Source: an uncultured Erysipelotrichaceae bacterium
GTDB taxonomy: Bacteria; Bacillota_I; Bacilli_A; RF39; UBA660
Assembly: GCA_948442015.1 (NCBI GenBank)
Contig: CAOJRP010000002.1
Span: 9,841-73,840, forward strand
Length of the DNA: 64,000 nucleotides
Direction: 5' to 3'
Both the position numbers and the translations under genes were made by a program. The notes under the pieces were generated by a model. The model made no database searches. It had not been told where the DNA came from and worked only from the letters and a program-made list of their open reading frames with translations. This document shows positions 2,163 through 20,715 of this stretch, piece after piece (the first letter of the stretch is position 1; every line of letters begins with the position of its first letter).

Positions 2163-2163
<1 letters not shown>
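1612..2163 (+). CDS. grpE: nucleotide exchange factor GrpE
   Basis: Charged coiled-coil N-terminus, then AELQNTKRRAEE...LLAVIDNFERA...GYTYRGKVIRHAMVKV. Sits between hrcA and dnaK. Confidence 0.92.
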
Positions 2164-4491
<2,328 letters not shown>

Positions 4492-5811: not shown

Positions 5812-7350
5812 ATGAAGAAAATGTTTAAATTATTTTTTATATTTGCAATTATATTTTCATATAAAATGATTGTTAGTGCTAAAGAATTAGTTTTATCTTA
5901 TGCACCATTTTATTATGAAAGAAGTGAAGAGGGAGGTGAATATAAATCCTGGAAATTTCCTAAATATGATATTGATGGCGAAACAGCTTATTGTATTCAA
6001 TTTGAAATTCAGCAAGGAACTACTTATGAAGAAGTGGACTGGCAAGAAATGGGGATTGACGAAAGTAAAAAAGAAAGATTATTACTTATAGCTTATTATG
6101 GCTATGATTATAAAGGGCATGACAATGACTATTATAGGGCAGCAACACAAGGTCTTTTGTGGGAGTTAACAGCTCATAACAATGCAACTGTTAATTTTAC
6201 AACAGAAAGATATGGAAAAGGAGATTTAGTTGATGTAAGTCGGGAAAGAGAAGAAATAGAAAATTTAGTTCTTCATCATTATGATAAACCTGATTTTAAA
6301 ACAAATTATCAAGTTAATTTGGATGAAAAACTGGAATTAAATAGTTCATTACTAAAAGATTATGACATAGTAGATAATAATGGCTTAAAAGTAGAAAAAA
6401 GTGATCATAGATTAGTTATTGAGCCAGATAAGGTTGGTAATTACTCTTTAAAACTACGAAAGAAACAAGTATACCATCATGATTATCATTTTTTAGCTTC
6501 TACAGGTTATCAAAACATGGTATCAGCAGGTAATGTCCCTAATGTTGATTTTGATATAAACATCGAAGTTTTAGGAGGAAAAATAAAGTTAGAAAAGAAA
6601 GACTTTGATACAAAAGAAAATATTTTAAAAGAGGGAATTAAGTTTAAAATAAAAAATCTCGATAATAATGAAGAAGTATGCTTTAATTCTTCTTGTATAT
6701 TTGAAACAGATGAAAAAGGATCATTTACAACAGATGAGTTAAAATATGGAACATATGAAATTACTGAAATATGTGAAAATATTTATGGATATCAATGTAA
6801 CAAGGAACCAATTAAAGTTGTTTTAAATGAAAAGACAATTATTAATAATGTTGTTTTAGTAAATTTTTACAATAAGAGATCTTTAGGAAGTGTTAATATT
6901 CATAAAGAAAACGAGTTTAATGAGTCTTTAAATAAAATAGAATTTAATTTAGAAGCCTTAGAAAATATTAAATTTAATAATGAAATAATTTATAAAAAAG
7001 GAGATACTATATCAAAGTTAATTACTGATGAATTTGGTAATGCTAGTATAGATAATTTGCCGCTTGGTAAGTACTTATTATATGAAGTAAAAACAAAAGA
7101 AGGATATATTTTAGATAATGCAAAGTATGAAATAGACTTAACTTATAAAGATGCTTATACTACTCCAACTTATGAAAAAACTTTCATTAATTATGAAGAA
7201 GGTGGAGGTAATACAGAGATTCCAGAAATACCTAGCGAGGAAGTAGTAATTCCTCCAGTAATCGAAATAGATGTTCCTGATACAATGTCCTTGAATTATT
7301 TGTATTATTTATTTAATCTTTATGCCTTTCTAAAATCTAGAAGAAGATAA
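5812..7350 (+). CDS. secreted thioester-domain (TQXA/TED) adhesin with SpaA/Cna-B-type domains and an LPXTG-like C-terminal signal
   Basis: Signal peptide MKKMFKLFFIFAIIFSYKMIVSA. Thioester Cys motif AYCIQ (Cys codon 5992-5994) and Gln motif AATQGLLW. Two prealbumin-like modules (GTYEITE..., LPLGKYLLYEVKTKEGY). C-terminus has VPDTM, a hydrophobic stretch and KSRRR. Confidence 0.75.
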   Translation: MKKMFKLFFIFAIIFSYKMIVSAKELVLSYAPFYYERSEEGGEYKSWKFPKYDIDGETAYCIQFEIQQGTTYEEVDWQEMGIDESKKERLLLIAYYGYDYKGHDNDYYRAATQGLLWELTAHNNATVNFTTERYGKGDLVDVSREREEIENLVLHHYDKPDFKTNYQVNLDEKLELNSSLLKDYDIVDNNGLKVEKSDHRLVIEPDKVGNYSLKLRKKQVYHHDYHFLASTGYQNMVSAGNVPNVDFDINIEVLGGKIKLEKKDFDTKENILKEGIKFKIKNLDNNEEVCFNSSCIFETDEKGSFTTDELKYGTYEITEICENIYGYQCNKEPIKVVLNEKTIINNVVLVNFYNKRSLGSVNIHKENEFNESLNKIEFNLEALENIKFNNEIIYKKGDTISKLITDEFGNASIDNLPLGKYLLYEVKTKEGYILDNAKYEIDLTYKDAYTTPTYEKTFINYEEGGGNTEIPEIPSEEVVIPPVIEIDVPDTMSLNYLYYLFNLYAFLKSRRR

Positions 7351-7944: not shown

Positions 7945-8016
7945 TCTTTTTTATTGTCTTTTGAAAAAATTTACTATATAATAAAAAAAGAAATAGGGAA
8001 GTATGGGGTGTTTTGT

Positions 8017-11000
8017 ATGGATGACCAAGAAAAGCCAAAAGCAATAATAAAAAGGCCTATTAAAGGTTCTGCAAGTTATGTTAAAACTAATTTTAAATTA
8101 GTTGATGGCAAAATGGTTTATGATAGAAGTTTTAAATCGTTTGAACAAGAAGAAAATGAAAAAATTATGGGTGCATATCAAAAAAGAAATGGTAAACCTC
8201 TTAAAGAAGATGCGACGAAGATAAGAGAAGAAAACGAAAGAAGAAGAGAAGAAAGTATAAAAAGAAGAAAAGAAGATGCCAGAAAGACGAAAATAATTGT
8301 TGATAAATTACAAGAAAAAGAAACATTAACTAAAAAAACAGTTATAAGTAAAACAAATAATACGAATACACAAGTAAAAAATGTAAATTTATTTGCTGAG
8401 TTAAAAATTGGCGAAGATGATAAAAGTATTCTTTTAGATGTTATTAAATATTCTCTAAGTGCAAGAGAAATAACTATTTTAAAAGATTTTTATGGTTCTA
8501 AATATGATGGGTTAAATCGAAAGACTAATAGTAAAGAAACTAAAAGTAATGCTAGAATAGTCATAAGTAAAATTAAACCAAAATTAAAAGAAACTTTAAA
8601 AATTAAAAATGATAAACTAAAGTATCGTTACTATTTACTTAGTTTTAAAAATGAAGTAGAGTATATTTCCCAAAATATCTTTAAAGATATTCCAAAAAGT
8701 ACTTTGGAAAATGCTTATAAAAAATTAACTGTAGAAGAAGAAGGTATTGCCAAAAAATATTTTGACTCTTTAAAAGGAGAAAAATTAACAGACGAAGAAT
8801 TGATTGTTTTTTCAAATGTTATTTTTCCTAAATTAAATGTATATGTTTTTAGTCCTAAAGGAATAGATGCTTATTTTAAAGTTTATACGACAGATGAACA
8901 AAAAGTATTAAGAGATATTGTAAAATTTCTTCCTAAAAGTTATTTAGAAATAATTAAGAAAAAATTTGGTGAGAATCTTAATGGTCAAAATACAGAGAAA
9001 CTATCAAAAAGTGAAGTTTGGAATTTTAATAAAACTATCACTCCTAAAATAGAGAAAAAATGTAAAGAATTAAGTGAACAAAAAGGAACTTGTGATTATT
9101 ATATATCTTTAATTAAAGGTTTTTCTTCTCTAAATATCGAAGCAAAATGCCATGTAAAAGATGAAATTGATAAGAAAATTCTTCTTAGTCTATTAGAAAA
9201 ACTTAATGAAAGAGATTTAAATATTCTATTCACGACAGAAGAATTGTCTAATATAACTAGAAATGAGTTATCATCCAAAAGATACAGGATAACTAATTAT
9301 CTTAAAAAGAGTATTATAGAATTAAGAAAAGTTTATGATGATCAAGAATCATATAAAATCCTTTTAGAACAACTATTAAATGGTAATCCAATAAATGAAG
9401 CAAGAGAAAAACAAACAGTTAACAAGCAAGCAGATAAAATAGATTTTACAATATCTTTTGCCCATTATCTTGAAAAAGTTTCTTTAAATATTTTAGCAGA
9501 TGTTATTAATTATGCTTTAAAAGATGACGAAAAAGAATTTATTTATACTTTATTTGCTGGTGATTACGAAAAAAGTGTGGTTACTAAGTTAAAAAATAAA
9601 GTTAAGAGATTTAATAAAATAAATATTAAAATAAACTCTTTTGTTAATTATATAGTAGATTTTCTTGAAGAATATGAAGAATTTCTTGATAGATTAAAAG
9701 CTTTTCCTAAAGATGAGGATTACAATTTGTATCAAATTAAAGATCTAAAAACTTTCTTAGATATTCCTTATGATGCAAATTTAAAGTTTATTCTTAAAAA
9801 TAGTTTAGATAAAGAAGAAAAGTTGTTGCTTCAAAAAAGATTTGGTTTAGCTTATGAAGGATTTTTAGCTAGAAAAATTGATAGTAAGGAAAAATATTCT
9901 TTAATGCTTATTAAAGATAAAATTATAAAACAATATTCTTTAATAAAAGATAATAATTTAAGTGATATTGAAAAATTAAAATTCCTAAAGGAAGAAGAAA
10001 GTATAAGAAAAAAAGGTCCTTCTTTAATTGAATATCTAAATATGAAAGAAGATGAAAAAGAAAATTTAGATCTTGCTCTTGTAACACTTATTCCTAAATA
10101 TATAGATATTCTCAAGAAAAAATTTGGCCCTCTTTATGATGGTATAAATAGAGAAAAGTTAAACTCTAATGAAAATAACTGTTTTTTTGAGTTGATAATG
10201 CCTAAACTTAGGGAAGCTTTTAGAATTATTAATGAAAGTGAGGAAGTGGAAAAAGAATTAAATAAATTAACAAGTAAAAATAAATTTGGTTATCGTTATT
10301 TGTCATTATATGAATTCTTTGAATTGCAAGAAGATGAGAAAGATACTCTTCTAACGATAGTTAATGATACTTTTACTACTGATGAGATTTCTTTACTTCA
10401 AAAAAGATTTGGTCCATTATATGATGGTGTAAATATTGAAGAGATAACGGATGAAGAAAAAAAATATATTCGTATTTCTTTACTTCCAAGATTAAAAGAT
10501 GCTCTTAATTCCCAAGATTTACCGCTTTGTAAGAAAAATAAGGTTTCATTACAAGAATATTTAGGTCTAGATGATGAAGAAATTAAATATTTATCTTTAG
10601 CTATTACTACATTAAAAGAAGAACATATTTTACTTTTACAAAAGAATTTTGGTTCATTATACGTTGGAGTTAATACTAAAGAACTAACTCGAAATGAAAA
10701 AAGTCAACTAGCTCAAACAATTAAACCAAAATTAAAAGAAGTTATCCGTTTATTAAATGAGGTAAGAGAAGAACAATTAGAAGAGGAATTAGATAAATTA
10801 ACAAGTAAAAATAAATTTGGTTATCGAAATTTATCATTATATGAACTTCTAGGTTTATCACTTAGTGATAAAAATGTCCTTATTAATAGTATTAATAAAA
10901 TATTTGATAATAACGAAATTTCTTTACTCCAAAAAAGATTTGGTCCATTATATGATGGGGTTGGTATTAAAGGAGTAACTGAGGAAGAAAATAAAATTAT

Positions 11001-11865
11001 TATTCAAGTTTTAATTCCTAAATTAAAATGGAAAATAGATAAAAAATTAGGAAAAGAGAAAAAAGTAAGTAAGAACTATCGAATAAAGTCTTTATTTACA
11101 TATTTAAATATACATGAAGAACAAAAATACATTCTTTTAGATGTTATTAATATTTTTTCTTTAGAAGATAAAAAAATGTTACAAAAAAGATTTGGCTCGT
11201 CATATGATGGAGCTGATGTAGAAGAAATTACCAAAAAAGAAAAAAGTCGTCTTACTTCTACAATAATTCCCAAAGTTAAAAAAATGTTTGAAATATTAAG
11301 TAGTGTATCAAAGGAAGAATATAAAGAAACTTTAAGAAATTTAGCTAAAACTTATCAAAAGAAAAGTTATAATAATACTTTGACTAGAAAAATGACTATT
11401 GAAGAATATGAGCATGAACAAAGAAGAAATCTGACGAAAGTAGTTGCTATCGAAGAAGTAGAAATAAAAGAAGGGAAAAAAGAAAGCTATGAAAATGAAA
11501 ATATTGCTTATCTTAAAGATTTAGTCAAAATATTAGAAGAAGAGAAAAAAAAGATATTTAAAAATTATAAAAAAGAATTATGCGCTAATAAATATAATTT
11601 ATCGTTATTTAATAGTAAACTAAAAATATATGCTTTAAATTTAGTTTCCTATGGTTTTACTAAAGAAGAAGCGATGTTTATCCTTTTACTTACAACAGAG
11701 GAATTAAATATATCTAAAGCAAAATTATTATCTTTATTAGGAATAGAGGAAGAAATTTTAAGCGAAATTTATCTAAATAGTATTAACAAAATAAAGAATC
11801 TATTAAGTAACGAATTAGATAATTATCTTTCACTATTAAAAGGAAAGAGGGATAGCTATGAATGA
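8017..11865 (+). CDS. giant protein composed of about 11 tandem sigma-70 region-4-like modules
   Basis: Recurrent (L/I)LQKRFGPLYDG(V/I)N...E(E/K)K...(I/L)PKLK modules. Motif DNA is at about 8478, 8951, 9822, 10110, 10395, 10636, 10926 and 11178. ATG 8017 (RBS GGGGTG) is preferred, because the listed TTG 7954 lies in promoter-like sequence (ttgtct...tatataat). Confidence 0.8.
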   Translation: MDDQEKPKAIIKRPIKGSASYVKTNFKLVDGKMVYDRSFKSFEQEENEKIMGAYQKRNGKPLKEDATKIREENERRREESIKRRKEDARKTKIIVDKLQEKETLTKKTVISKTNNTNTQVKNVNLFAELKIGEDDKSILLDVIKYSLSAREITILKDFYGSKYDGLNRKTNSKETKSNARIVISKIKPKLKETLKIKNDKLKYRYYLLSFKNEVEYISQNIFKDIPKSTLENAYKKLTVEEEGIAKKYFDSLKGEKLTDEELIVFSNVIFPKLNVYVFSPKGIDAYFKVYTTDEQKVLRDIVKFLPKSYLEIIKKKFGENLNGQNTEKLSKSEVWNFNKTITPKIEKKCKELSEQKGTCDYYISLIKGFSSLNIEAKCHVKDEIDKKILLSLLEKLNERDLNILFTTEELSNITRNELSSKRYRITNYLKKSIIELRKVYDDQESYKILLEQLLNGNPINEAREKQTVNKQADKIDFTISFAHYLEKVSLNILADVINYALKDDEKEFIYTLFAGDYEKSVVTKLKNKVKRFNKINIKINSFVNYIVDFLEEYEEFLDRLKAFPKDEDYNLYQIKDLKTFLDIPYDANLKFILKNSLDKEEKLLLQKRFGLAYEGFLARKIDSKEKYSLMLIKDKIIKQYSLIKDNNLSDIEKLKFLKEEESIRKKGPSLIEYLNMKEDEKENLDLALVTLIPKYIDILKKKFGPLYDGINREKLNSNENNCFFELIMPKLREAFRIINESEEVEKELNKLTSKNKFGYRYLSLYEFFELQEDEKDTLLTIVNDTFTTDEISLLQKRFGPLYDGVNIEEITDEEKKYIRISLLPRLKDALNSQDLPLCKKNKVSLQEYLGLDDEEIKYLSLAITTLKEEHILLLQKNFGSLYVGVNTKELTRNEKSQLAQTIKPKLKEVIRLLNEVREEQLEEELDKLTSKNKFGYRNLSLYELLGLSLSDKNVLINSINKIFDNNEISLLQKRFGPLYDGVGIKGVTEEENKIIIQVLIPKLKWKIDKKLGKEKKVSKNYRIKSLFTYLNIHEEQKYILLDVINIFSLEDKKMLQKRFGSSYDGADVEEITKKEKSRLTSTIIPKVKKMFEILSSVSKEEYKETLRNLAKTYQKKSYNNTLTRKMTIEEYEHEQRRNLTKVVAIEEVEIKEGKKESYENENIAYLKDLVKILEEEKKKIFKNYKKELCANKYNLSLFNSKLKIYALNLVSYGFTKEEAMFILLLTTEELNISKAKLLSLLGIEEEILSEIYLNSINKIKNLLSNELDNYLSLLKGKRDSYE
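10255..11316 (+). repeat. 531-bp tandem duplication inside the region-4-repeat gene (two units, two modules per unit)
   Basis: gaattaaataaattaacaagtaaaaataaatttggttatcg at 10255 recurs nearly identically at 10786. atttctttacttcaaaaaagatttggtccattatatgatgg at 10387 recurs at 10918. The period is 531 bp in both cases. Confidence 0.75.
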
Positions 11866-13024
11866 TAAAGAACAAAATTATATTATAGAAACTTTATTAA
11901 AGTCATATTCTAATTCTAGCCTTATAAATGAAGAATATATAACTAATCTTTTAGAAAAATTAGAAGAAAAAGATTCTTCTCAAACGATATTTACTTGTAA
12001 AAATATAATTAATAATTATTTAGCCAACCAAGCAAAAGTTGATGAGAATATTTTATTTGAGTTAACAATTGATATGGTTTCTGTTAAAGAAAGAATTTGT
12101 CTTAAATTAAAATTAGATGTTAATAATCCAATATATGATGATTATTTAATGGAAGGGATCTTGAGCTATGATGGGAGTAAAAGCCTTGATTTATATTTAA
12201 GTAGTTTCCTAATGCAAAAAATAAAAATAAAATATGTTCCTCTAAAATCTAGTAAAATACTGGAATATAAAGATCATAAAACTAATAAGGATAAAGAGTT
12301 AATAAGTGGCAGTGAACCTGAAAAAATAGTAGAAGTTCCTCCTGTTATTACCTTAGAAGAAAAATCTCCAATTAGAGAAGAAGATTTAAAGATAGAATCA
12401 TCAGCTCTAGAACAAGAACAAGAAGTTTCTTTTTCAAAAGAAGATAAAATAGAGGAAGTAGCTAAAGAAGAGGTAGTTTCTACAAGTCCGCTTACTGTAA
12501 AAGATAGTTCTCTTTCATTAACGAAAAGAAGGTTAAAGAATCAAAGAAGAAGAGAAGCGAAAAAAGAACAACCACAAGCCTTAAATGAAGAGATTTCATT
12601 TGAAGTTCCCATAGAAGAATTAGAAGATTTATTAGTTTTAGATAGTGATGAAACGGAAATAATAGAAGATGTTACAAAAGATTTATGTGAACCTTTAGAG
12701 CAACATGAAGAAATAAATGGTAAAGAATTAGCTGATAGAATTTCTGAGGTTATTAATAATATTCCACCACTGGAAGAAGACAATATAGTGACAAAATTAT
12801 ATAAATTACTTGGTGTAAAAATAAATATAGAAGATAACATTTTTTATTATTACTATACTTGTTTGAGATTTGGAACAAAAGATAAAACTTATTCTTTAGA
12901 AATAATAGCTACAACACTTGGACTGTCCCTCGAAGAAGTTATTGCTTTTGAAGAATATACAATTAATCAAATAAAAGAATTATTAAATACTGTCGATAAA
13001 AATATTTCTTTAACTTTTAATTAG
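11858..13024 (+). CDS. divergent sigma-70-like protein (region-2-like stretch, acidic linker, region-4 HTH)
   Basis: Start overlaps the upstream stop (ATGAATGA). DDYLMEGILSYDGSKSLDLYLSSFLMQKIK resembles sigma region 2. The C-terminus CLRFGTKDKTYSLEIIATTLGLSLEEVIAFEEYTINQIKELL is an r4-type HTH. Confidence 0.6.
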   Translation: MNDKEQNYIIETLLKSYSNSSLINEEYITNLLEKLEEKDSSQTIFTCKNIINNYLANQAKVDENILFELTIDMVSVKERICLKLKLDVNNPIYDDYLMEGILSYDGSKSLDLYLSSFLMQKIKIKYVPLKSSKILEYKDHKTNKDKELISGSEPEKIVEVPPVITLEEKSPIREEDLKIESSALEQEQEVSFSKEDKIEEVAKEEVVSTSPLTVKDSSLSLTKRRLKNQRRREAKKEQPQALNEEISFEVPIEELEDLLVLDSDETEIIEDVTKDLCEPLEQHEEINGKELADRISEVINNIPPLEEDNIVTKLYKLLGVKINIEDNIFYYYYTCLRFGTKDKTYSLEIIATTLGLSLEEVIAFEEYTINQIKELLNTVDKNISLTFN

Positions 13025-13049
13025 GTACTTTAAAAAGTATCTTTTTTTT
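13024..13049 (+). terminator. intrinsic terminator
   Basis: ggtacttt-aa-aaagtatc hairpin (one G.U pair) followed by T8. Confidence 0.6.
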
Positions 13050-13082: not shown

Positions 13083-13736
13083 ATGGACAATAATTTAAAT
13101 AATGTCGAATTTATAAATAAAAAAAACAATATGCAAAGAAGTACTATTTCAATAACTGTTTTATTAGGGATTATTTTATTTCTTTTACTAATAATAGGCT
13201 ATTTAATTTATACAAATTTAAAAAAACCTGATGAAATAATTGTTGATAATTGTAAAAATACGACTAATATAGAGGAAAATAAAAGTGAGGAACAAGAAGT
13301 TAAAGAAGAGGAAGAAAAAATTACAATTAATGAAGAAGTATTTAGCGAAATGTTAAAATTACTACCAACTCTTAAAGGAACAGATTATCTTGATTATCAT
13401 CTTTTTCAAAAGAAAATGTTATCGAAAGAAGAGATCTCATCTTTTAATACTAGTTTAGAACCAACAAATTTTAAAGAAGTATTTTATGTGCCATATCAAG
13501 TAGAGATAACTTCTAAGAATACTTTCTTATATCTTTATATTGTGATACATGATAAAGCAACTGATTCCTATTATGAAAGCTCTTTAGATAATGACAATCC
13601 TTTAGAAATTTCCTTATTTGATAAAAGAGATAAAGAGATATTTCAAAAATATGGTGGCAGATACAAAATAACTTACGTCAATGGAGCTTTTGGCTATTTA
13701 TTAGATAAACTCGAATATATAAGTGGAAAGAGGTAG
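13083..13736 (+). CDS. single-pass membrane protein, function unknown
   Basis: 217-aa ORF with one TM segment (ISITVLLGIILFLLLIIGYLIY) after a short N-terminus. Confidence 0.6.
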   Translation: MDNNLNNVEFINKKNNMQRSTISITVLLGIILFLLLIIGYLIYTNLKKPDEIIVDNCKNTTNIEENKSEEQEVKEEEEKITINEEVFSEMLKLLPTLKGTDYLDYHLFQKKMLSKEEISSFNTSLEPTNFKEVFYVPYQVEITSKNTFLYLYIVIHDKATDSYYESSLDNDNPLEISLFDKRDKEIFQKYGGRYKITYVNGAFGYLLDKLEYISGKR

Positions 13737-13740
13737 AAAA

Positions 13741-14787
13741 GTGCGATATTTTAAATTTAAAGGTGTTAATGGGGAAGATAGAATAATAAGAGAACAAGAT
13801 TCTTTAACTGATACTTTTATTAGTGGTAGATGGATGAGAGAGCCAAGTTTAATTGCCAAAATTAATGGGACAGATCACGATGAGACAGTAATGGAAATAA
13901 GTGAGAAAGAAGCTATGACTATTATAGGAGTTCCACAAACAAGTAAAACAAGGGGACTTATAACTTATATTGTGCCAGTTATTTTAGTTATCTTATTGGT
14001 AATTGTTGGGAGTATGGCAATAAAAAGATTCAAAGATAATAGTAAAGAGAAAAATGCTATTTATGAGAAATCTTTAAATGAAAGAATAAATGAAGTAATT
14101 AATGTCAAAGATAGTGAAGAAGATATAACAAAAGATACTTCGGAAGATTTAAAAAAAGATTTATATAATTTGATACCTTTTTCAGCAAGTTCACTAAAAA
14201 ATGCTTATCAAAGTGATAGTACAAATATAAATATGATTGATTCTGTAAATCTTTATGCGACAGCTATTACTCATTGCAATATCAAAAATGATTGTTTAGT
14301 AAGTGGCGAAGGAAGTTATAGTATTGAAGATATAAAAACAGCTATATCTCATATTTTTAATGGCTATAGTGGTTATAATGTTTTAAGCATTCCAGAATCT
14401 TTTGTATCACTAGATAATAAGTTAAAATGTGATTTAGAAGAAAATAAAACTAGTTATTATTGCCATAAAAATGCTAGTTTAGAAAACACTTATCGTGATT
14501 ATGATATTGTAAAAATAACTAAAGAAGCTGATGATATCATTCTTTATGAGTCAAGTGTTTTAGTTTATAAAGAATATGAATTTGAAAATGTTAACTATTA
14601 CACTGTTTATCGTTATAGTAATGCGACAGGGCCTATCTTAAGTTGTAATATTGAAAATCCTTGTGAAAAACTTAAAAATCCTTATGCAACTTATGGAAAA
14701 AGTTCGATTATTTATAAACATAGCTTCAAAAAAGATGCAAGTGGTAACTATTATTGGTATAACACAGAAGTAAATGGGGTATTATAG
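13741..14787 (+). CDS. single-pass membrane protein with a Cys-containing extracytoplasmic domain, function unknown
   Basis: Long ORF. GTG 13741 sits behind GGAAAGAGG (the listed start 13723 is also possible). TM segment LITYIVPVILVILLVIVGSMAI. Confidence 0.6.
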   Translation: MRYFKFKGVNGEDRIIREQDSLTDTFISGRWMREPSLIAKINGTDHDETVMEISEKEAMTIIGVPQTSKTRGLITYIVPVILVILLVIVGSMAIKRFKDNSKEKNAIYEKSLNERINEVINVKDSEEDITKDTSEDLKKDLYNLIPFSASSLKNAYQSDSTNINMIDSVNLYATAITHCNIKNDCLVSGEGSYSIEDIKTAISHIFNGYSGYNVLSIPESFVSLDNKLKCDLEENKTSYYCHKNASLENTYRDYDIVKITKEADDIILYESSVLVYKEYEFENVNYYTVYRYSNATGPILSCNIENPCEKLKNPYATYGKSSIIYKHSFKKDASGNYYWYNTEVNGVL

Positions 14788-19554: not shown

Positions 19555-20715
19555 ATGCTAAGAAATAGAGCTTATAAATTTAGATTATATCCAACTAAAG
19601 AGCAAAGTATCTTAATAAATAAAACTTTCGGATGTACAAGACTTATTTATAATATGAGTCTTGCTAAAAAGAAAAATAATAGTGAGTTATCTTGTTATGA
19701 TTTGATAAAAGAAATACCAAAGTTTTATCTAAAATACCCTTTTTTGAAAGAAGTAGATAGTTGTACTTTAAGATGTGCAATATTTAATTTAGATAATGCT
19801 TATAAAAGATATTATAAGAGATTAGGAGAATATCCTAATTTCAAGAAAAAAGAAAGTAAAGATAGTTATAGAACAAATAATATAACAAGTACATATAAAG
19901 GTAAAAAATATGAGAGTATAAAAATAGATTTAGAAAATAAAGTAATAACTCTTCCAAAATTAAAAGAAGTAAAAATAAGAGGATATCGAAACTTAAATAA
20001 GATAAATGGAAGAATAATAAATGCAACAGTTGAGAGAATAGGATATAGATATTATGTATCAGTAGTCGTAGAAGAAGCTGTAACATTACCAGATAAAAAA
20101 GAAGATAAAATAGTAGGAATAGATATCGGAGTAAAAGATTTAGTAGTAACAAGTGATGGAAATACTTATGGGAATCCTAGATATAATGAGAAATATGAAA
20201 AAAGAATAAAGAAGTTACAGAAAGATTTAACGAGAAAAGTAAAAGGAAGTAAGAATTACATAAAGAATAAAATAAAAATCCAAGAAGTATATCGAAAATT
20301 AGCTAATGCAAGAAAAAAGATGACAGAAGAAATAGTTAATAAAATAACCAAATATAACGATATAATAATAACAGAAAAATTAAGAGTAAAAGAAATGCTT
20401 ATAAAGAAAGAAAAAATATCTCAGACTAAAACCTTAAGAAAAAATATAACAAATGCTACATTTGGACAAATAATAAGAAAACTAGAAGAGAAATGTAAGA
20501 TGTTAAATAAAAGTTTTGTTCAAGTAGATGAATATTATGCAAGTAGTCAGATATGTAGCAGATGTAATAGTAAGAATAAAGAAATGAAAGATATAAAAAT
20601 AAGAAAGTATAAATGTAGCGAATGTAAATTAGAGATAGATCGAGATGTAAATGCAAGTATAAATATCGAATATGAGGGGTTAATAAAATATTTTAAGAAT
20701 AAATATGCAAATTAG
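19555..20715 (+). CDS. tnpB: RNA-guided endonuclease TnpB (IS605 OrfB family)
   Basis: N-terminus RAYKFRLYPTKEQ. RuvC motifs VGIDIGVKD, IIITEKL and DRDVNASINI. Zinc ribbon CSRCNSKN...YKCSECKLE. Confidence 0.9.
   Translation: MLRNRAYKFRLYPTKEQSILINKTFGCTRLIYNMSLAKKKNNSELSCYDLIKEIPKFYLKYPFLKEVDSCTLRCAIFNLDNAYKRYYKRLGEYPNFKKKESKDSYRTNNITSTYKGKKYESIKIDLENKVITLPKLKEVKIRGYRNLNKINGRIINATVERIGYRYYVSVVVEEAVTLPDKKEDKIVGIDIGVKDLVVTSDGNTYGNPRYNEKYEKRIKKLQKDLTRKVKGSKNYIKNKIKIQEVYRKLANARKKMTEEIVNKITKYNDIIITEKLRVKEMLIKKEKISQTKTLRKNITNATFGQIIRKLEEKCKMLNKSFVQVDEYYASSQICSRCNSKNKEMKDIKIRKYKCSECKLEIDRDVNASINIEYEGLIKYFKNKYAN

Follow-up and report, generated by a model that had tools for sequence, protein, structure and literature searches.

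Two adjacent genes on the forward strand of the window (the whole 64,000-nucleotide stretch of DNA analyzed here) are described below, and their features are collected in Table 1. The upstream gene encodes a 1,282-aa array protein when read from an ATG at 8017; alternative starts are the GTG at 8008 of the database gene call and the TTG at 7954 of the mechanical ORF. The protein is identical to database cluster P0001, lacks a sigma core and matched no family in Pfam or NCBIfam. Its stop codon overlaps the start of the gene for a 388-aa partner, as proposed in the initial annotation and as read directly from the sequence, and the identical 8-nt overlap is found at orthologous loci L001–L003. 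The promoter-like site 5' of the array gene is a candidate whose score does not exceed the shuffle expectation for the region. At the other end, the hairpin and T8 tract of the proposed terminator are present, but its stability cannot be told apart from that of shuffled sequences and a consensus scan missed it. Two membrane proteins lie downstream of the pair, one of which (354 aa) comprises about 70 cytoplasmic residues, a single transmembrane segment and an outside domain; neither matched any anti-sigma family. They are followed by the PGT-LCP-VanZ module named in the initial annotation, which is corroborated by Bac_transf, LCP and VanZ Pfam matches at orthologous loci. The locus is chromosomal rather than mobile, and the pair is syntenic with adhesin, PGT, LCP and VanZ genes across the lineage; the two membrane proteins are not retained beside it outside the window lineage.

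Table 1. Features of the array gene and its partner gene (positions in the window)
Feature	Position	Strand	Evidence
Promoter-like site TTGTCT-17-TATAAT, just 5' of array gene	7954..7982	+	Consensus scan, 10/12 matches
Array protein	8017..11865	+	ORF list, cluster P0001, charge
N-terminal basic region, aa 1–120, net +11	8017..8376	+	Without sigma domains; kept only among close orthologs
Module 1, aa 125–191	8389..8589	+	Broad profile E 6e-13; self-HMM
Module 2, aa 221–275, partial	8677..8841	+	Broad profile E 1e-4; self-HMM 1e-14
Module 3, aa 285–349	8869..9063	+	Broad profile E 3e-19
Module 4, aa 385–434, degenerate	9169..9318	+	Broad profile E 0.006
Module 5, aa 481–541, degenerate	9457..9639	+	Broad profile E 1e-6
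Module 6, aa 575–639	9739..9933	+	Broad profile E 8e-11
Module 7, aa 669–733	10021..10215	+	Broad profile E 6e-18
Module 8, aa 763–831, first in tri-module model	10303..10509	+	Broad profile E 3e-18; AlphaFold pLDDT 85
Module 9, aa 844–909, in tri-module model	10546..10743	+	Broad profile E 4e-16
Module 10, aa 940–1007, in tri-module model	10834..11037	+	Broad profile E 4e-16
Module 11, aa 1024–1091	11086..11289	+	Broad profile E 2e-20
C-terminal cap, HTH-like terminal domain, aa about 1197–1282	11605..11862	+	Common to sigma-array fusions
Stop/start overlap, 8 nt, ATGAATGA	11858..11865	+	Read directly; SD-like AGGAAAGAGGG just 5'
Partner protein, 388 aa, pI 4.6	11858..13024	+	ORF list, charge
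Partner N-domain, aa 1–125, seven helices, putative sigma-2-like fold	11858..12232	+	AlphaFold pLDDT about 90; Foldseek
Acidic disordered linker, aa 126–286, net -19	12233..12715	+	pLDDT below 50; poorly conserved
Partner C-domain, aa 287–388, sigma-4-like	12716..13021	+	hhalign, sub-threshold Pfam, Foldseek, alignment
Terminator-like AT-rich hairpin GGTACTTT/AAGTATC + T8	13024..13049	+	Sequence and fold; weak, z -0.6

The array protein consists of about 11 four-helix modules strung like beads, each of approximately 70–80 aa, and a conserved C-terminal cap; this copy number is far above chance. With a self-derived HMM, nine modules stood out clearly (individual E from 1e-14 to 1e-34) and about three more were weak, and a broader family profile recovered 11 solid modules at E<0.01 and one marginal copy, which agrees with the earlier count of about 11. 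The motif positions listed previously also correspond to (K/R)(K/R)FG or FYG at 8959, 9835, 10117, 10402, 10642, 10933 and 11185, and the motif listed at about 8478 to a DFYG at about 8490. The statement that eight copies are obvious at the DNA level was too strong: in the nucleotide sequence, repeats can be recognized only as four copies of a 62-nt core (73–84% identical) and as a two-module super-repeat of 531 nt, and TRF detected no array. Several of the modules are neutral or acidic in charge. In the sigma-array fusions P0057, P0060, P0071 and P0052, the cap likewise lies at the very C-terminal end; that of P0057 gives a Sigma70_r4_2 match below threshold, and that of the window protein weakly resembles the partner HTH (hhalign 35%).

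In an AlphaFold model of Modules 8–10 (pLDDT 85, pTM 0.52, with low confidence at the first inter-module linker), each module consists of a short helix, two further helices, a conserved 13-residue loop (GPLYDGxNxxxLT) and a single long helix, which finishes in a basic PKLK patch and aligns with the sigma-4 recognition helix and its C-terminal continuation. The modules keep the region 4.1 helices and pattern (L..LL...L..xE..LLQKRFG) with the terminal (R/K)(F/Y)G motif. When the broad module profile was compared by hhalign with genuine sigma-4, similarity was found over 27 columns (84% probability, E 7e-6; the narrow profile gave 26% only) but ended at RFG, and the global alignment was gapped at the first HTH helix. 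A weak match to region 4.1 of S. aureus RpoD was also obtained. Direct searches with single modules, the check suggested in the initial annotation, were negative: none of 36 modules, those of the window protein among them, matched Sigma70_r4 or Sigma70_r4_2 at E ≤ 10, nor did the whole window protein; none of the 36 matched any Pfam HTH family; and the modules had no match among Pfam, NCBIfam and PDB families. The suggested structure prediction gave a helical fold but no region 4.2 helix-turn-helix after RFG, and a Foldseek search with the tri-module model returned nothing significant. The modules are truncated sigma-4 derivatives that lack the first HTH helix, not intact HTHs or, as had been supposed, an r4 core followed by two helices, and they probably do not read DNA.

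Distant relatives strengthen the link to sigma factors. In P0025, P0024 and P0026, summed partial matches to Sigma70_r4 (profile positions 2–20, and hence restricted to region 4.1) exceed the gathering score, the P0025 modules together reaching 59.7 bits. A 595-aa protein at locus L009 harbors an intact Sigma70_r4 domain within its module run, and in relatives the modules come straight after genuine sigma-4 domains or are scattered among them. Together with the hhalign result and the fusion or coupling of the module family to genuine sigma factors, this evidence for the proposed origin of the modules from sigma-70 region 4 is convergent, though indirect.

The pair does not stand alone but is part of a wider family. 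An exhaustive profile search recovered 108 relatives at E ≤ 1e-3 in uncultured Bacilli MAGs, and the array family belongs to uncultured low-GC Bacilli ('Tenericutes'-like MAGs) and is undescribed. Of the 113 family proteins, 37 have a complete sigma-70 core joined to the array, either before or after it, and 32 of the 35 large relatives contain Pfam sigma domains. Two orders occur: sigma-1.2/2/3/4 followed by the array, and the array followed by sigma-2/3/4 (P0029, P0030, P0040, P0044 and P0076); explicit sigma-array architectures were found in P0021, P0023, P0133, P0128, P0057, P0060 and P0077. At L009, a sigma gene and an array gene are adjacent, with an 8-nt stop/start overlap. Since such sigma-array genes were found again in independent samples, they are unlikely to be assembly chimeras. 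Arrays of up to about 1,900 aa occur in the family, with 8–12 modules in close relatives and from 2 to about 20 overall. Orthologs of the array protein form eight full-length clusters (37–75% identity) in which cap, coupling and synteny are kept. The co-occurrence of array and partner, which the initial annotation had expected in relatives, extends beyond the orthologous loci: partner homologs lie immediately 3' of array proteins on three further contigs from two other sub-lineages (loci L007, L011, L012 and L013), where the upstream gene contains a complete sigma core. We define a 'sigma-tail array' family by tandem profile-matching modules, a terminal cap, and a sigma or sigma-like gene that is either fused to the array or next to it. 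The window pair belongs there by its 11 modules, shared cap and coupled sigma-like partner.

The partner shows the three-part layout ascribed to it earlier, with a helical N-domain (1–125), a disordered acidic segment (126–286) and a C-domain that is helical at 288–379 in the AlphaFold model, and its sigma-like character is likewise upheld. Its top Foldseek matches are almost all sigma factors (best, sigma-32 at E 0.11; none at E ≤ 1e-3), and PhyR and NepR-bound sigma structures are among the weak fold matches. The N-domain was matched to the sigma-2 domain of SigC (2o7g; TMt 0.66, rmsd 2.9 Å) and to full-length sigma factors, and the C-domain to sigma-4 domains (4g8x, TMt 0.62). In sequence, the C-domain aligns with genuine sigma-4 (hhalign 89%, E 2e-6), and Sigma70_r4 matches below threshold were obtained in 8 of the 11 partner members (best E 0.003). 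It contains an LRFG motif and an HTH with an acidic recognition helix; the 'clear' HTH of the initial annotation is retained in shape but without the canonical -35-contacting residues (TRERIRQ pattern), all of which are missing from the alignment. The helix aligned to the recognition helix reads SLEEVIAFEEYTINQIK, and the net charge of the C-domain is -6. The proposed region-2-like stretch has some backing from fold comparison, at weak Foldseek E-values, but none from sequence, with no Pfam match to Sigma70_r2 and an hhalign probability of 0.1% against genuine sigma-2. A motif-level echo of sigma-2 DLIQEG / YATWWIRQ is present (DDYLMEG...LDLYLSSFLMQ), and the best-conserved partner segment, DDYLMEGILSYDGSKSLDLYLSSFLMQKIK, lies where sigma carries DLIQEG...FSTYATWWIRQ. 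The pI values of partner and array protein are complementary (4.6 versus 9.0).

On balance, we lean towards a sigma-factor-derived accessory pair associated with sigma or RNAP, in which the array would serve, with the partner, as a sigma-4 mimic or docking scaffold. This is the most likely role of the array because its modules keep the protein-contact parts of sigma-4 (region 4.1 and the basic C-terminal helix) without the DNA-reading HTH. The array would act in trans with its co-translated, sigma-shaped partner (sigma-2-like fold, acidic disordered linker and sigma-4-like HTH without -35-reading arginines), offering a multivalent surface to sigma-4 binders such as the RNAP beta-flap, regulatory proteins or the partner. 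The array gene of the window lineage may have lost its sigma core; either such a loss occurred or the fusion was never present. The array is unlikely to bind DNA; as a basic protein it may still bind nucleic acid. A split alternative sigma is possible but doubtful: the partner would be a divergent two-domain (ECF-like) sigma that binds core RNAP and drives the adjacent envelope genes, the array a regulatory or co-sigma subunit like the cis tail of the fusions, and the single-pass membrane protein an anti-sigma. The order of array and sigma-like gene parallels that of the array-then-sigma fusions, the partner has both sigma-like domains with DDYLMEGILSYDGSKSLDLYLSSFLMQKIK conserved at the expected position, the topology of the 354-aa protein is anti-sigma-like, and the envelope genes are syntenic across the lineage. 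However, the recognition helix is acidic and devoid of canonical -35 contacts, Sigma70_r2 signal is nil, and the membrane proteins neither accompany the pair outside the lineage nor match anti-sigma families. Moreover, because the gene upstream of the partner homologs at L007 and L011–L013 has a complete core, it would be too simple to call the partner 'the sigma' of the array.

One role raised in the initial annotation, that of intact sigma-4 HTHs that coat or bridge DNA, has some features in its favor: an RFG-type motif in the modules, an overall basic array protein and an HTH-like cap. This reading is now very improbable, since the modules are not HTHs and have no direct Sigma70_r4 matches: a loop replaces the first HTH helix, similarity to sigma-4 stops at RFG and the charge of several modules is neutral or acidic. 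In a proteome of 25% GC, besides, a pI of 9 is ordinary. Recruitment of the repeat outside transcription, in a structural or scaffolding role for the adjacent envelope machinery, is improbable; neither protein has a signal peptide or transmembrane segment in its sequence, and elsewhere the array is fused to sigma factors and has other neighboring genes, despite the lineage-wide synteny and a copy number that varies fast, as in structural repeat proteins. We give hardly any credence to a functionless relic of a sigma-array gene. The missing core and the degenerate modules would suit decay, but the 1,282-codon ORF is unbroken in DNA of 23% GC, and eight full-length ortholog clusters conserve cap, coupling and synteny.

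More speculatively, and with little confidence, the accessory-pair reading could extend to a gut Bacilli clade whose sigma factors, perhaps with the housekeeping group-1 factor among them, bear giant truncated-sigma-4 tails as landing pads for RNAP, regulators and sigma-like subunits; the window would then hold such a tail and a promoter-blind sigma mimic as free-standing, co-translated proteins. These tails might be likened, as a bacterial functional analogue, to a repetitive polymerase tail. Few bacterial proteins are as well studied as sigma factors, and no description of tandem sigma-4-derived domain arrays was found in Pfam, NCBIfam, PDB or the searchable literature. The family is marked by its sigma-fused or sigma-coupled arrays and by the conserved, sigma-shaped protein that accompanies them. 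Should these arrays serve to dock RNAP or regulators, they would represent a new mode of organizing transcription initiation in poorly known, host-associated, reduced-genome Bacilli, and the module would be a natural sigma-4 without DNA-reading function that helps to separate protein-contact roles from promoter recognition. If the repeat was co-opted otherwise, it would still illustrate clearly how a domain of a core transcription protein can be amplified.

Compared with sigma-70 region 4 (Sigma70_r4 / Sigma70_r4_2), the modules share L..L..L..xE..(V/L)L..RFG and an amphipathic basic C-terminal helix, but have the GPLYDGxNxxxLT loop in place of the first HTH helix, an extra short N-terminal helix and 2–20 tandem copies, and those of the window fall below every Pfam threshold. 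The partner C-domain retains the RFG motif and a full HTH, though not the -35-contact residues. ECF41/42/56-type sigmas, such as ECF56 with its SnoaL_2 extension (PMC7730460), resemble the fusion relatives in carrying an extra domain after the sigma-4 of a complete sigma. In those ECF sigmas the extension is one globular domain of an unrelated fold, whereas the fusion relatives carry 500–1,700 aa tails of sigma-4-derived modules on group-1-like sigmas (r1.2-r2-r3-r4) and in the window the tail is a separate protein. PhyR, an anti-anti-sigma with a sigma-like domain, is alike in principle only: its sigma-shaped domain does not read promoters and works by protein-protein binding, and partner and modules both resemble sigma parts without DNA-reading residues, but the window pair has no receiver domain, NepR-like partner or sequence relationship to it. 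In B. subtilis SigO-RsoA, two co-expressed halves encoded by adjacent genes jointly form one sigma. Compared by description, the window pair differs in combining a sigma-2 plus sigma-4-like unit with about 11 truncated sigma-4 copies in an array, and shares with SigO-RsoA the spreading of sigma functions over two polypeptides from adjacent, co-expressed genes.

The reading of the giant array protein as about 11 copies of one module agrees with profile searches, and the motif positions given for it in the initial annotation are correct. A self-HMM seeded on five copies from the giant and iterated on the giant itself recognized nine modules clearly (individual E 1e-14 to 1e-34) and some three more weakly, and the whole-family profile detected 11 at E<0.01 and one marginal. 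The accompanying statement that eight copies are obvious as DNA was too strong: repeats detectable at that level are limited to a 62-nt core in four copies and a two-module super-repeat of 531 nt, and TRF found no tandem DNA repeats. Segments of the super-repeat are 72–89% identical as DNA, a sign that a pair of modules was duplicated recently. Close orthologs of the giant contain between 8 and 12 modules.

The overlap of the giant's stop with the start of the sigma-like partner was read directly as 8 nt (ATGAATGA, in the junction ...AAAGGAAAGAGGGATAGCTATGAATGATAAA...), and a strong SD-like element lies upstream of the partner start, within the 3' end of the giant gene. Fusion of the two proteins by programmed frameshifting was ruled out because the overlap comes with a strong SD and without a slippery context. 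Base composition across the window is low in GC (23–30%). Of the terminator proposed to end the pair, the hairpin and T8 are present as a weak signal.

Coordinates of the gene pair and of neighboring or related features (window positions unless a relative's locus is named)
Feature	Position	Strand	Remarks
Giant ORF, 1,282 aa	8017-11865	+	ATG start 8017; alternatives GTG 8008 (database gene call) and TTG 7954 (mechanical ORF)
Partner ORF, 388 aa	11858-13024	+	
Promoter-like site	7954-7982		TTGTCT-17-TATAAT
Terminator-like hairpin	13024-13049		
Super-repeat	10244-10497 and 10775-11028		
Three-module segment modeled	10273-11067		
166-aa ORF	2163-2663		between grpE and dnaK, overlapping the dnaK start; no Pfam match; L003, an orthologous locus, has only a 70-aa gene at this position
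Surface adhesin	5812-7350		thioester domain (TED) and SpaA fold; C-terminus sortase-signal-like: non-canonical motif VPDTM, hydrophobic stretch, KSRRR
354-aa single-pass membrane protein	13723-14787		probable start the MRYFKF methionine (13741), as in orthologs, not GTG 13723; ~70 aa cytoplasmic, one TM segment, ~250 aa outside; anti-sigma-like, no family match
386-aa ORF	19555-20715		immediately follows rplU-ysxB-rpmA; presumably IS200/IS605-family TnpB/OrfB-like, as read from its translation
Five sigma-related genes in a row	L009:162-16382		one Bacilli MAG
Sigma-array fusion loci	L007:4911-17157; L008:554-10007		

Neither Pfam nor NCBIfam gave a significant match on the giant or its partner, and when 36 non-redundant modules taken from seven orthologs were searched singly against Pfam, not one matched Sigma70_r4 or any HTH family. 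Among PDB sequences the module profiles gave only a weak match to region 4.1 of S. aureus RpoD (E about 0.3), 24 residues of which align to ..ilLdiik.Ls.eei.lLqKrFG. In the predicted structure of three consecutive modules (mean pLDDT 85), each module consists of a 5-residue helix, a 14-residue helix and an 11-residue helix to QKRF, followed by a 13-residue loop (GPLYDGxNxxxLT) and a helix of 21–24 residues. The predicted fold has this loop and single long helix after RFG in place of a helix-turn-helix, and the earlier description of an intact r4 HTH was not borne out. The linker between the first two modules is of low confidence and the tri-module pTM is 0.52, which suggests an arrangement as beads on a string. 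Foldseek returned nothing significant for the tri-module from the PDB or a viral library, the query probably being too long for a 60-aa match; sigma factors recur among its weak matches (probability <=0.04).

Four lines of evidence converge on an origin of the module from sigma-70 region 4 (sigma-4). Among the sigma-first fusions examined, in which a complete sigma core and a module array share one chain, arrays begin only after a genuine sigma-4. The modules of three array-family proteins (P0025, at 59.7 bits, P0024 and P0026) together exceed the Sigma70_r4 gathering score, each module matching just profile positions about 2–20, that is, region 4.1. An intact Sigma70_r4 lies above threshold at 338–386 within the module run of a 595-aa protein at the L009 locus. 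Finally, hhalign aligned a broad module profile of 718 instances to the sigma-4 domains of fusion proteins across region 4.1 and RFG (probability 84%, E 7e-6); a narrow profile reached only 26%. The global alignment leaves a gap opposite TLEEIG of sigma-4 and places the long helix of the module on TRERIRQIE.KAL.KLR. In all likelihood, the module is a sigma-4 derivative lacking the first HTH helix rather than an intact HTH, and the giant a chain of about 11 such truncated domains plus a C-terminal cap. The module has no Pfam or NCBIfam family and no PDB relative; the domain from which it is built is already known, and the protein paired with the giant resembles a sigma factor. The searchable literature on sigma-4 arrays or tailed sigmas yielded nothing comparable.

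Close homologs are very rare, those of the giant forming 7 clusters and those of the partner 12 among 5.8 billion sequences. Of 185,579 species-representative genomes (GTDB), a single MAG, labeled 'uncultured Tenericutes bacterium', holds a relative, and JGI metagenomes scanned with the partner family gave no match. When 1.84 billion representatives were searched exhaustively with the module profile (hmmsearch), 108 proteins were returned at E<=1e-3, many with 10–19 matched stretches; source records of the family are 'Bacilli bacterium' MAG proteins. Pfam detected Sigma70_r4 in 32, Sigma70_r2 in 25, r3 in 24 and r1.2 in 17 of 35 large members, and a sigma core is present in 37 of 113 family proteins, including 30 of the 48 with at least 800 aa. 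P0021 comprises sigma-2 (24–91), sigma-3, sigma-4 (196–245) and then 10 modules, and P0023 comprises r1.2, sigma-2, sigma-3, sigma-4 (373–422) and then 13–16; P0133, P0128, P0057, P0060 and P0077 share this sigma-first layout. Six array-first proteins carry all modules N-terminally and sigma-2/3/4 at the C-terminus. The cap, the terminal ~80 aa of the giant, is common to the extreme C-termini of fusion sigmas and weakly resembles the HTH and tail of the partner (35%). The gene row of L009 encodes a 381-aa sigma, the 595-aa protein with Sigma70_r4 and modules, a 949-aa sigma with modules, the 1,862-aa array P0032, which the 949-aa gene overlaps by 8 nt, and, last, an array of 1,568 aa in which 18 modules are solid and one is marginal. 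Gene calls at L013 separate a 549-aa sigma from a 1,100-aa array, the two genes overlapping; in another assembly they are a single gene of 1,645 aa. Arrays are repeatedly linked to sigma or sigma-like proteins, both physically by fusion and genetically by overlap. The wolframin cysteine-rich domain (WC-rich, PF20053) reached or exceeded its gathering threshold on P0032 (45.5 bits), P0029 (27.4) and P0030 (26.0) and just under it on P0040 (20.5), each score being a sum of partial matches to profile positions about 48–95; this is probably a shared helical motif, not homology.

The three parts described for the partner appear in its model as a confident seven-helix N-domain (aa 1–125, pLDDT about 90), an acidic, disordered segment (aa 126–286) and a helical C-domain of moderate confidence (aa 288–379). 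Foldseek matches are almost all sigma factors, none at E<=1e-3: full-length sigma-32 and sigma-A align over both domains, and isolated sigma-4 (4g8x, TMt 0.62) and sigma-2 (SigC 2o7g, TMt 0.66, rmsd 2.9 A) domains also match. The stretch called region-2-like may have a sigma-2-like fold, as the sub-threshold SigC match suggests; hhalign found no relationship of the N-domain to sigma-2. As for the 'clear r4-type HTH', the C-domain aligns to genuine sigma-4 (89% by hhalign), and 8 of the 11 members of its family show sub-threshold Sigma70_r4 matches at the C-terminus (E 0.003 at best), but its recognition helix, SLEEVIAFEEYTINQIK, has neither the -35-reading arginines nor the -35-reading glutamine. 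The partner is acidic (pI 4.6) and the giant basic (pI 9.0). Neither the partner nor its profile matched PDB sequences. Since hhalign detected no relationship between module and partner, the latter is not just another module of the array. It is best described as a sigma-shaped, promoter-blind-looking protein.

All orthologous loci share the order TED/SpaA adhesin, FMN reductase, giant, partner, two membrane proteins, Bac_transf, LCP and VanZ, with the dnaK operon upstream and the 8-nt overlap retained. The pairing extends beyond this lineage: partner-family HMM matches lie directly 3' of arrays at L007 (full length, E 4e-19, after P0052), at L011 and L012 (following a sigma-array fusion of 1,645 aa, with a 4-nt overlap) and at L013. 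The two downstream membrane proteins are conserved within the lineage only and match no family, and were rejected as conserved companions or anti-sigma factors; conservation of both their cytoplasmic and outside parts does not discriminate on an anti-sigma role. Tblastn found no match in phages or plasmids, which together with the chromosomal context (dnaK and rplU operons) led to rejection of a mobile-element origin.

Overall, an association of giant and partner with sigma or RNAP as an accessory pair is somewhat favored. In sigma-70, contacts with the beta-flap and with activators or anti-sigma factors are made by region 4.1 and by the basic helix at the C-terminus. The modules retain both elements and lack the one that reads DNA; because the protein-contact parts are kept, the likeliest role for the array, tentatively proposed, is that of a docking scaffold or a multivalent mimic of sigma-4. 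Such an array would act in cis where it is fused to a sigma; in the window lineage it would act in trans, alongside the co-translated partner.

The main rival is rather improbable: it makes the partner a genuine alternative sigma, though a very divergent one, that serves the neighboring envelope genes and has the giant for a cofactor. The sigma-like fold fits it; however, the partner homologs at L007 and L011–L013 sit beside complete sigma cores in the upstream genes, and the partner therefore cannot be just the array's own, detached sigma. A search for a canonical sigma gene in the rest of the window found none. DNA coating by intact HTHs is less likely given the lack of an HTH after RFG in the predicted structure. 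Also less likely are an envelope scaffold, which the neighboring envelope genes might suggest, and a functionless relic. There is a real chance that the array reflects a more fundamental feature of how these bacteria carry out transcription.

At L007 and L008, the sigma-array fusion gene is flanked by T2SSE/T2SSF (competence-pilus-like) and ruvA-NT5C-ruvB. By analogy, these tailed sigmas might be regulators of recombination or competence: their position beside ruvA and ruvB is reminiscent of MG428, an alternative sigma of Mycoplasma genitalium that controls recA and ruvAB (PMC4446450).
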